A stretch of 64,000 nucleotides of DNA from Pecten maximus. Taxonomy: Eukaryota. The stretch spans positions 29,574,001 to 29,638,000 of the forward strand of contig NC_047031.1 in NCBI RefSeq assembly GCF_902652985.1, written 5' to 3'. A program made the translations under genes and the position numbers. Below, in pieces: positions 24,330-56,196 of the stretch. The notes beneath the pieces were generated by a model that saw nothing but the letters and a program-made list of their open reading frames with translations, was not told the origin of the DNA and searched no databases. Position 1 is the first letter of the stretch; every line of letters begins with the position of its first letter.

Positions 24330-24710
24330 CACGGGAAAGTTTAATGGTTGACATCATGGCCATATTTGGAAGTGTTCTACTTCCTTGTGCGACAGAAAGT
24401 CAGACGTGTCAATGCACGTTGATATGCCTTGTGGTTCCCTGGTCACCACCATAGTTCTTAATTTGAGATTGTGACTAAAACCTGATTTGACATAGATTTG
24501 CATGACGGGTGTCGCTGTGACCTAGATCTGCATGGCGGATGTCGCTGTGACCTAGATTTGTATGGCGGGTGTCGTTGATGAAACAGAAGACGCTTACTCT
24601 TCCAGAGCACCTGGTCTTGTTTGTAAGGGTCACATTGCTAATCTATATTTGTGTGCGCTTTAGTTAGAATTACATATTTTTTATTATGTCGGTATTCGCA
24701 GTTGTTTCCT
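24330..24710 (+). mobile_element. Penelope-like element ORF end and 3' region, with internal 30-bp triplication
   Basis: Translates GKFNG*HHGHIWK (compare KFYGRHH in PLE ORF C-termini); gacctagatttgtatggcgggtgtcg x3; gacgcttactcttccagagcacctggtc. Confidence 0.65.
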
Positions 24711-35459: not shown

Positions 35460-36055
35460 AAAACGGGAGCAAAAACAACAGAGAATACCGACATAATAAC
35501 TAAACCATAATCAAAGATAGATACTACGAGAACCAATATACTGAGTTCCTTGAGGAACTACGGGATAAGACCAGGACCTTATTCATGATCATAAGTTAAA
35601 CAAAACAAGGTACTCTGATGGTGAGTGTGCCTTCTGCTTCCTCCACGACACCCGCCAAACAAATATACAATATTTTTGTAGGTCAAATTGACGAAACCCT
35701 CCATACAATTTTAGCTCATATCGACGACATCCGCCAAACAAGTCTAGGTCAAATCGACGACACCCACAATACAAATCTAGGTCAAATGGATGTAAACCGC
35801 CCTTCAATCCAGTTCAAAACGATGACACCCGCCATACAAACCTGGGTGAAATGGAGGAAACCCGCCATACAATTCTAGTTCAAATCGACGACACCCGCCA
35901 TACAAATCTAGATCAAATCGACGACACCCGGTACACAAATCTAGTTCAAATCGAGAACAACCGTCATACAAATCATGATAAAATCGGTAACTCCCTCCAT
36001 ATAAATCTTGGTCCAGTCTGGTCCACCTCACATACTCAAAATGAGAACTAGGAAT
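35460..36055 (-). mobile_element. Penelope-like 3' region containing a 33-bp tandem array (~11 copies, 35644-36014)
   Basis: Unit AAATCGACGACACCCGCCATACAAATCTAGGTC is the reverse complement of the segment triplicated at 24488-24575; flanks match the same family. Confidence 0.8.
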
Positions 36056-39155: not shown

Positions 39156-40096
39156 GTTGTTACTCTTAAAAATGGTTTTAAAAACACTTAGGAGACTTTG
39201 TCCTGATAAGTCCGTATAACCGAGAAAAAAAAACCTAGTTATGGCGATATATTTTGTTAAACAGGTCAAAATCGTCATTTTGACTGGGCGTTTCTGTCTA
39301 AATAATCGGTTTAAAGAGTTAAAGCTTAAATCTTAAGAGCCGAGATTCGAATTGATAGTGCCACAGACCGCTCACGAGAGACGTTTGAAATTGGTGCCTT
39401 TTTTCAGTTTCTCTTCAGTAGAAAACAAGAGTTACTAACATGCTTGTTCTGGCATGACAGTATACACGTAAATTGTGTTCTGTAACATAGAGGTTAGCTT
39501 ATTTATCCATGTTAAAATGTTCTGTCAAACTGTTATCAAACTGTGAGGTCGACGATACTTAAAGTATCAAATGACACATTGACATGTTATGAAAGATTAA
39601 TGCGATTTAGAATAAAATCTTGTCAATGGCTCAGATCAAGTGACTGTGTTTGCATTTGATAGCACTTATCCAGGAGTGAAATGCAAAACATTTTATTACG
39701 TCACGATACTTATCTCATCGATGTCAATAAAAGTACATCATATAATGAATTTGAAATTTTGTGATAATAAAATGTATTGTGATCACTGATTGTAATGTCA
39801 TTTGGAAACCTAGGACTATATAAAGAGAGGAGTATACGAGGCAAACCAGACATGGCAGAACCAAAAGGCCGGAAGTCTAAGAAAAAGTTAAAAAAGTGTC
39901 GTTAATTAATGTCTGCCTTTTGTTTGGCCGTGATGGAACTTAAATTTACCATGACTTGTATGCCACATTTACATGTACACATGTTTTTATACTTTTTTAA
40001 ATCCAACATTTTGCACCTCCACATCCAGATTTAGACATTTCTTTAAACATATTTTGGCTTTTTGGTCGCCTCCCATGACCACTTTAGTCCCTCAGA

Positions 40097-40136
40097 ATTA
40101 CTGACGAGTCCCCGAGGGATGAAACAGCTGTATGAT
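40097..40136 (+). ncRNA. Minimal type-I hammerhead ribozyme (Penelope-associated type)
   Basis: ATTA-CTGACGA-GTCCC(CGA)GGGAT-GAAA-C(AGCT)G-TA-TGAT: CUGANGA and GAAA boxes, 5-bp helix II, palindromic ACAGCTGT helix III, GUA cleavage triplet, and 4-bp helix I. Confidence 0.72.
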
Positions 40137-40349
40137 GCAGTTTAATTCATTTTTTACCTTTTGTATCAAACTCTCCCAATCTAGATTTTGCTATTTCCCA
40201 ATTAAGGTCCCGCTTTTGCCTTCTAGGTATCAATACGCTGAACCTTTAGCATCTCTGACGAGTTTACTTCATCTGTGCTTTACTGTGTCTATTTATATTT
40301 TGATATGTTGAAAAGGTGCTAATATCTTACAGCCTTTTTTACTATTTTT

Positions 40350-40412
40350 TGCATGAAAGATGTTGTTGACGAATCAAAAGACGCTTAACATTACGGAACA
40401 CCTGGTCTCTTC
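40350..40412 (+). mobile_element. Penelope-like 3' fragment
   Basis: tgttgttgacgaatcaaaagacgcttaacattacggaacacctggtc matches 24570-24617. Confidence 0.55.
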
Positions 40413-41194
40413 CCTCTTGTTTTTAAACAATATCAGTGTCAAATAATATTGACCTTCCATCCAGTACCACGCCTTCTGTCAGGAAACACATTATCCTAAG
40501 AATACCAATAATATCCATTGTACGAATAGCATAATCGCTCACTCACGATCTTTACTTCTCCACATACACACATATTGTGATAAAACTTCAATAATATATC
40601 AGACCATATACATGTATACATATTTTATTATCGTTTGTTTTATTCTATACTCTTCATTAGTCTTGTTTTTGTGTCTTCTGACGACTGAAGTATATATGCA
40701 ATGTAGATATTGAGAAATATATACACTGTACCTTCTAAAATTCTCCTCTTAATGCGTTTGTGAAAGTCGGAATCCGTATGGTACCATTCAGTTCACTCTT
40801 AACTTCATGCATTGCCATTTCTCAGTAAAGCCTTAGTTCTGAAGTGTTGACAGACGCCTCAGTAGCAGTGTGCAGTCCTTTGTTTTGTCTGTCTGTTAGA
40901 TGACGCACATATCATAAATCTTGATGACATCGATTGTCCAGCATGAAGCCTTCACGGACTGATATGTATCCTCTCTGTTAGACATTCAGATACATATTTA
41001 AGGAACGTGTCTGGTATTTTTTACCATTTTCTGTGATACAATTCTTGGTGTTCACGTCACAAAGCAAAAAGATTTTGTATCAATCTAGCTGGTAACTTAC
41101 CCAACTCCTTTATTCTTTTAAAAAAATAAACAAGCAAAAATATAATAACGAACGACGTGAATATACACAATCACATTCAAACTTGTTGAAAAGG

Positions 41195-55481: not shown

Positions 55482-56196
55482 ATGATACCACACATCATGG
55501 GGCCGTGTGGGGAAATATGGTCACTTCCGGTATTGCTACAAATGACCATGGTCATAGTAACACTTCTTCCAGGGGTGGAACTCAGTAAAATTGACGTGAA
55601 AATTGCGCTGATGGTACCAGAAAAACATTTATATTTTTCACGAATGATGGTCGAACCAGCAATAGAGGTAGCAATTGAAGAGGTTGGAAAAAGAGAGTTA
55701 CTTCCCTTCCACAGATTAAACGTAACCAAATACAACACACAGTGTGACTCCGTAAGTGCCCCGGTGGCAGCCTTCCGTTTCATGGATGATGGGGGTCATG
55801 CCTTTTTCGGCCCCGTTTGTGATTACAGTCTAGCTGCCGTTGCTAGGTACGCTCCATCATGGGGTCTTCCAGTTGTCTCCCCTGGGGGACTTGCGGAAGA
55901 CTTCTTAGACAAAAAAGTGGAATATAAAACGCTCACTCGTATGGGAATGGCTTTTGACTCTATGACGAGATTCATTCTTGCCGCGATCGCCCATTACCGA
56001 TGGCCGAAACTGAAGCTTTTGTATGACCCTAATGGTCAGAACGCAATTTCGGACCGGTTCTGCTTTTTAGCAGGATCTGCATTAATAAAGGAGATTCGAA
56101 CCAAAAGGAAGGACATGACAGGGGAATATACACTGATAACAGGCCCTTCCTCGTACAACAAGATTCTTCGGGAGGACGTTGGTGCCAAGTTTTCAA
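55482..56196 (+). CDS. First coding exon of an atrial natriuretic peptide receptor-like / receptor guanylyl cyclase family protein (signal peptide + ANF_receptor periplasmic-binding-protein-like ectodomain)
   Basis: 244-aa ORF with a hydrophobic N-terminus (..WSLPVLLQMTMVIVTLLPGVELS) and family motifs PAIEVAIE, QCDS, AFFGPVCDYSLAAVARYAPSWGLPVVSPGG, EYKTLTRMG, HYRW, RFCF. Homology ends at a canonical donor TCAA|gtaagt (GT at 56197, phase 1). The start may be ATG 55497 (catcATGG). NPR-A/B versus NPR-C type cannot be resolved from the ectodomain alone. Confidence 0.93.

Follow-up and report, generated by a model that had tools for sequence, protein, structure and literature searches.

Hammerhead ribozymes have been described in two kinds of metazoan retroelement with which the present locus can be compared, non-LTR retrozymes and Penelope-like elements (PLEs). 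Mussel retrozymes are 350–390 nt long (PMC7229834), and retrozymes have been reported along with their solo derivatives, the shortest units measuring 51 bp (bioRxiv 10.64898/2026.07.22.740005). Their copies are explained by a reverse-transcription model (PMC7229834; reviewed in PMC7761336). PLEs carry minimal hammerheads in which helix II has 7–8 bp, helix I is short and one base is left unpaired ahead of helix II; these motifs sit in the pseudo-LTRs (pLTRs) of ORF-bearing elements and are expected to act as dimers (PMC4209133). The folding of dimers through helix III is classical (PMC6155905), and the triplet GUA is found in natural hammerheads (PMC1636495).

The window analysed here, a 64,000-nt stretch of the Pecten maximus genome, contains a type I hammerhead at 40095–40138 of the + strand. 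We consider with good confidence that it belongs to a decayed copy of an old, dispersed 396-nt repeat, most likely a fossil non-LTR retrozyme, and that this copy probably no longer cuts. Its core strands, CTGACGA (40101–40107) and GAAA (40121–40124), flank a helix II formed by GTCCC-CGA-GGGAT (40108–40120). The palindrome ACAGCTGT occupies 40124–40131, the GUA triplet ends at A40132 and helix I pairs ATTA (40097–40100) with TGAT (40133–40136). Inspection of the letters found each part exactly where the initial annotation had placed it. The CUGANGA, GAAA and NUH core strands and helices I–III are all present, the 12-nt core is intact, and the cut is predicted after A40132, immediately downstream of the palindromic helix III strand (ACAGCUGU at 40124–40131, +). 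A second CTGACGAG lies at 40255–40262, and a repeat-derived sequence, which we refer to as the tail, begins at 40348.

The Rfam covariance model RF00163 (Hammerhead_1) aligns end to end (model positions 1–45) with 40095–40138 at 26.1 bits (E 0.0031 in 4.5 kb searched), a match that supports the proposed hammerhead but does not reach the gathering score of 34 bits. A score under the cut-off would suit a chance match, as would two other results: the loose core-only pattern is common in the window and not significant (10 matches against 5.6 expected, with 18 of 100 shuffles reaching 10), and the minimum-energy fold of a 53-nt piece with the motif is not a hammerhead (z of only −1.39). A strict descriptor combining the core with 4 bp of helix II, the helix III pair and 4 bp of helix I points the other way, since its one site in the window is this hammerhead and it finds none in 200 locally shuffled windows. 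Homologous copies, moreover, reach up to 42 bits with RF00163. The existence of a homologous family already refutes the chance reading, to which we give virtually no weight, and the motif is real.

A BLAST search of the 918 Mb genome with 39900–40500 returned 553 candidates; the 40 that were scored match only ~40005–40175, at 72–88% identity. Another part of the unit gave 302 candidates. Walking out through the copies yielded a consensus unit of 396 nt with 37% GC, in which the longest stop-free frame has 53 codons. RF00163 matched 29 times among 72 genome-wide candidates scored, 21 of them above the cut-off. The original identification of a true type I hammerhead with a palindromic helix III in a retroelement-type repeat is supported. 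In the consensus ribozyme, helix I has 6 bp and is predicted to extend further beyond an internal loop, helix II has 4–5 bp, and helix III consists of 2 bp capped by AGCU. On sequence grounds the family is old, dispersed and non-coding. Its copies are mostly 75–90% identical to the consensus outside arrays, and their decay is flat, with the ribozyme region at 0.84 and the other bins at 0.80–0.89 in 29 loci picked without the ribozyme. An intact core was found in 0 of 15 copies picked without the ribozyme and in 7 of 26 ribozyme-picked copies. Minisatellites have also arisen elsewhere in the unit, with periods of ~50, 58, 15 and 74 bp (L074, L082, L083, L021, L026 and L097).

The ends of the copies are informative about how the family spread. 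A fixed 3′ end lies 94 nt downstream of the predicted cut site, and copies end within ~20 nt of that position in 44 of 79 distinct loci and in 31 of 50 ribozyme-picked loci. The 5′ starts are scattered, with no defined 5′ end among the 79 loci. Several copies (L003, L007, L014, L019 and L043) continue beyond position 1, where the end of a further unit is joined to them head to tail. Copies of more than one unit number 8 of 50 among the ribozyme-picked loci; the automatic count for all loci, 27 of 79, is inflated, since 29 loci came from a junction-spanning query and some alignments contain long gaps. No long arrays of whole 396-nt units occur within the 3-kb loci, which mostly hold one or two units. 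Target-site duplications were not found among these old copies with uncertain 5′ ends (at least 8 nt shared in 1 of 27; control 1.9%). A comparison of the unit with the DNA upstream of four U2 and nine U1 loci, made without a shuffle control, gave only short AT-rich matches to an snRNA-type promoter. For the retrozyme circles in the literature, extensive self-pairing is predicted, whereas the circle of the consensus shows no unusual degree of structure (z −0.97, 60 shuffles); this fold and the lack of target-site duplications count against a retrozyme.

The unit and its head-to-tail copies fit the non-LTR retrozymes, which are non-coding low-GC units of ~150–450 nt with one canonical type I hammerhead and head-to-tail copies. 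From known retrozyme biology, tandem units would have been transcribed and then cut after GUA, best as dimers paired through the palindromic helix III, and the cut units would have been ligated into circles. A borrowed reverse transcriptase, probably of Penelope type, may have copied the circles from a fixed site, which would produce 5′-truncated and more-than-unit insertions. Reverse transcription that starts at a fixed point on circular or multimeric RNA would be expected to leave this pattern of constant 3′ ends, ragged 5′ ends and insertions longer than one unit. The earlier suggestion of a retrozyme remnant is therefore the best reading, given the family unit, its canonical hammerhead and this pattern of ends. 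As a genomic example for the retrozyme model, the family offers a constant priming end, 94 nt away from the cut site, together with more-than-unit copies.

Internal minisatellites, a 3′ end rich in T with an 8-bp palindrome close by, and the lack of target-site duplications recall non-autonomous Helentrons (HINEs; PMC4067079), in which case the hammerhead would happen to be the central repeat of such an element. This reading we hold to be extremely unlikely. Neither the subterminal inverted repeats (12–15 bp) nor the defined 5′ end of Helentrons is present in the consensus and the 79 loci, and the only inverted repeats of at least 8 bp in the consensus are three self-palindromes.

The initial annotation had called the motif a minimal hammerhead and attached it to a Penelope-like tail. 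Neither description is supported. A minimal PLE-type hammerhead was rejected, as the consensus helices of 6, 4–5 and 2 bp have the canonical architecture (PMC4209133), there is no extra base before helix II, and the PLEs of this genome carry minimal motifs of their own. Elements with RT plus GIY-YIG ORFs of 780–792 aa exist there, and our descriptor found hammerhead-like motifs in both terminal repeats of three of them (L158 at 220 and 3860; L159 at 681 and 4824, − strand; L160 at 703 and 4426, − strand), with a U3-A8 core variant in L159 and L160. The descriptor alone also placed hammerhead-like motifs in the PLE families L168, L172 and L174, and Rfam detected no hammerhead in 20 + 20 GIY-YIG regions. 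Another GIY-YIG element, with a 755-aa ORF (L157, L162 and L164; preceded in L157 by a 465-aa ORF), forms clusters within ~60 kb of the ends of large contigs (G000 C9, C6 and C2), with no hammerhead seen.

The presence of such PLEs, the relation of retrozymes to pLTRs (bioRxiv 10.64898/2026.07.22.740005) and the 5′ truncation, incomplete tandems and short overlaps between termini that are hallmarks of PLEs (PMC8557442) would agree with the 396-nt unit being the pLTR of an extinct autonomous PLE, its copies being 5′-truncated ends and partial tandems. We regard this origin as unlikely. Copies that continue past position 1 run into the 3′ end of another unit and never into a shared ORF remnant, the ribozyme is canonical rather than minimal, and no attachment to an RT plus GIY-YIG ORF, nor any common flanking ORF, was found in the family copies. 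The family profile had no match at E<1 in 30 + 20 GIY-YIG regions (50 of the 150 listed, mostly young families), and a 15-nt similarity after the ribozyme in such regions is at chance level (E 1.5–5).

The tail itself (40348–40450, +; profile E 1.5e-19) is a 5′-truncated piece of an unrelated, very abundant repeat that abuts the 3′ end of the retrozyme family. With 2797 candidates genome-wide and 17 profile hits within the window, it is a separate family that follows the hammerhead repeat in only 1 of 61 other loci, and its position exactly at the 3′ end may reflect chance or a common preference for T-rich sites. The tail family runs upstream into broken coding-like sequence with no Pfam match and no tblastn match to PLE proteins with a C-terminal endonuclease (EN). 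The tail may be the end of a Naiad-type PLE. Naiads are described as being without canonical hammerheads (PMC8557442). Tandem repeats of 30 and 33 bp at 24488–24574 and 35679–36013 of the window also derive from the tail family. A further tandem array, at 7165–7806, comprises a 53-bp unit in 12 copies, organised as a 159-bp higher-order repeat (99%), and the start of the 53-bp unit resembles the 5′ part of a tRNA or SINE.

At the window locus, the fossil retrozyme is represented by two tandem pieces. The first, a 5′-truncated piece with the hammerhead, spans 39973–40175 (+; nhmmer E 8.8e-45 with the family profile, with BLAST copies in the genome). It is firm from 40009 (consensus 176–345), with a weaker match back to 39973, and is 86% identical to the consensus over 167 nt. 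The second, more decayed piece (40173–40350, +; nhmmer E 8.7e-10 and alignments) extends from consensus 184 to the family 3′ end and contains the second CTGACGAG within an internally deleted copy of the unit. Some 32 nt are gone after CTGACG, removing helix II, GAAA and helix III. The annotation had correctly reported this second motif and its loss of the rest of the core, but as the catalytic half is deleted it is no dimer partner; with GAAA and the palindrome lost, no dimer can form in cis at this locus. Two consecutive units with complete ribozymes, the criterion of Li et al. (2026) for an active element, are absent here. As judged by their junction, the two pieces are a local duplication or a template jump and not read-through of a circle, because consensus 345 is joined to 184 rather than 396 to 1.

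The ribozyme of the first piece differs from the family consensus at 40096, 40099, 40112, 40113, 40116 and 40120. These 6 changes in 44 bases match the divergence of the whole copy, and three of them weaken helices I and II. The G-C pair with which the family closes helix II on the core side is replaced here by a G10.1-U11.1 wobble (40108/40120), helix I contains an A.G mismatch and a U.G wobble, and loop 2 is altered. The consensus combines the G10.1-C11.1 pair with a stable helix I; the window copy has neither. Its active monomer fold has a probability of 3e-7 and that of the consensus 3e-4, a difference of ~1000-fold in which only the ratio is meaningful, as the nearest-neighbour model omits tertiary contacts and the consensus monomer is also low. 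Other pairings are favoured in the predicted fold. Given the wobble, the damaged helix I and a tandem partner without its catalytic half, cleavage appears unlikely and the copy is probably silent. The fold model and these lesions argue against the proposal that the copy may still self-cleave.

A working ribozyme kept to cut a + strand transcript, such as a long leader of the receptor gene downstream, seems very unlikely on the same grounds: the changes track copy-wide divergence, three of them weaken helices, there is no dimer partner and the predicted fold favours other pairings. An intact 12-nt core, rare among single copies (0 of 15 in the unbiased sample), and a receptor exon on the same strand speak for such a role, but this copy was noticed because its core looked intact. 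The receptor exon lies 15 kb downstream. It is a spliced coding exon (55497–56196, +) with an ANF_receptor domain (PF01094, E 1.5e-22) and resembles natriuretic peptide receptors; it encodes a hydrophobic N-terminus and splices onward, with a loose end at 56196 in one contig. The annotation was right about the location of this exon, but no link to the hammerhead emerged: no contig joined the exon to anything upstream, and nothing indicated transcription of this copy or selection on it.

No RNA data were listed for 39960–40340. In four contig sets, two of them from runs only presumed to be RNA, 211 pieces align with 39200–41150 at 80% identity or more, none at 99% or more and three at 95–99%. 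Most carry the consensus bases at 40112 and 40120, which indicates that they come from other family copies, and some lie inside long contigs. Most unique parts of 39200–41150 are uncovered in these sets, a gap that does not argue for silence. Copies of the family and array junctions are present in the contigs of all four runs, where circles are indistinguishable from arrays. The window locus is an ordinary fossil copy, one of hundreds, and its family is new but of a familiar kind.

Many other family members contain, inside the 396-nt unit, head-to-tail repeats of the ribozyme itself with a 49-nt period. We counted 278 units of exactly 49 nt in 29 loci and 437 exact copies of a 37-nt array junction genome-wide (reversed control, 0). 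Arrays were seen in L020, L032, L038, L044, L057, L101, L196–L200 and others, with up to >40 units. That loci which are not linked have the identical junction implies that the mobile ancestor already possessed two or more ribozyme units. A sub-lineage with such units in a row probably existed, and the units later expanded at the DNA level into the 49-nt arrays. Growth at the DNA level is indicated by variants common to the units of an array beyond the star expectation (18 of 20 arrays), dead variants among them (none of the 17 units of L020 is intact), and by the minisatellites in other parts of the unit. At the outer end of helix I, 29 of 39 single copies have a G-C pair; array units have A with U in 171 of 278 and G with U in 53 of 278, which looks like a single compensatory event.

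Owing to the palindromic helix III and to a junction that closes helix I, 49-nt type I units could be read as chains of type III hammerheads. In the predicted minimum-energy fold, two consensus units form a double hammerhead, at the centre of which lies a closed type III motif of 57 nt (−19.6 kcal/mol) with closed helices I and II, an open, stable helix III of 8 bp and a full core. The type III fold of the consensus has a probability of 0.60 in the dimer and 0.24–0.31 in longer arrays; the type I fold within a single unit stays at <1e-6, and a dimer of whole 396-nt units is at 7e-7. In real arrays, 73 of 212 adjacent 49-nt pairs keep the core and so contain two consecutive complete ribozymes, but only 9 of these 73 reach a type III probability of 0.05 (median 1e-4). 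Two-unit pieces for which the type III fold is predicted with high probability lie in L057 (near 1299), L040 (near 1446) and L038 (near 1593), in oriented coordinates. The Rfam type III model RF00008 gave 24 matches among 66 scored, the best at 47.1 bits, under the cut-off of 48.5; all 15 that were fetched, from 13 distinct places, lie at array junctions.

It is possible, though doubtful, that the family spawned ribozyme-only minisatellites that act as chains of type III hammerheads, hundreds of sites of which would cut sense transcripts and could release 49-nt monomers or circles. If true, tandem duplication would have converted type I hammerheads into type III ones naturally, within the genome of an animal. 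The arrays offer a cheap test of whether tandem duplication makes an efficient cis-acting type III ribozyme from a weak, dimer-dependent type I, and of whether such arrays trim host RNAs. Full-text searches of part of the literature returned no description of arrays of bare ribozymes that form type III motifs; published supplements may list the family or its arrays.

With the minimal hammerheads of PLEs, the Pecten family shares type I topology, a palindromic helix III, an expected action as dimers and mostly dispersed single motifs; it lacks their long helix II, short helix I, unpaired base and ORF-bearing element (PMC4209133). It more closely resembles the metazoan non-LTR retrozymes (Cervera and de la Pena, 2020, PMC7229834; Li, Clavereau and Pollet, 2026) in its non-coding, low-GC unit of a few hundred nt, its canonical type I hammerhead, its monomers and tandems, and the PLEs in the same genome, and solo monomers have been described there too. 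Unlike those retrozymes as described, the Pecten family, known from DNA copies, is old and decayed, consists mostly of one or two units, has yielded no target-site duplications and is predicted to form an ordinary circle fold, and in many of its copies the bare 49-nt ribozyme is arrayed internally. The available part of the preprint on retrozymes describes neither arrays of the 49-nt type nested in a larger unit nor a type III fold (bioRxiv 10.64898/2026.07.22.740005). The pairing of tandem copies through helix III recalls the double hammerheads of the newt satellite and ASBVd and the type III hammerheads of plant satellites and viroids (PMC6155905; PMC1636495), and the predicted dimensions of the array junctions, 6 bp/5 nt and 4–5 bp/3–5 nt, are like those of natural type III hammerheads. 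In contrast to these systems, the Pecten copies adjoin without a spacer, so that the predicted type III motif arises from head-to-tail type I units in an animal genome.
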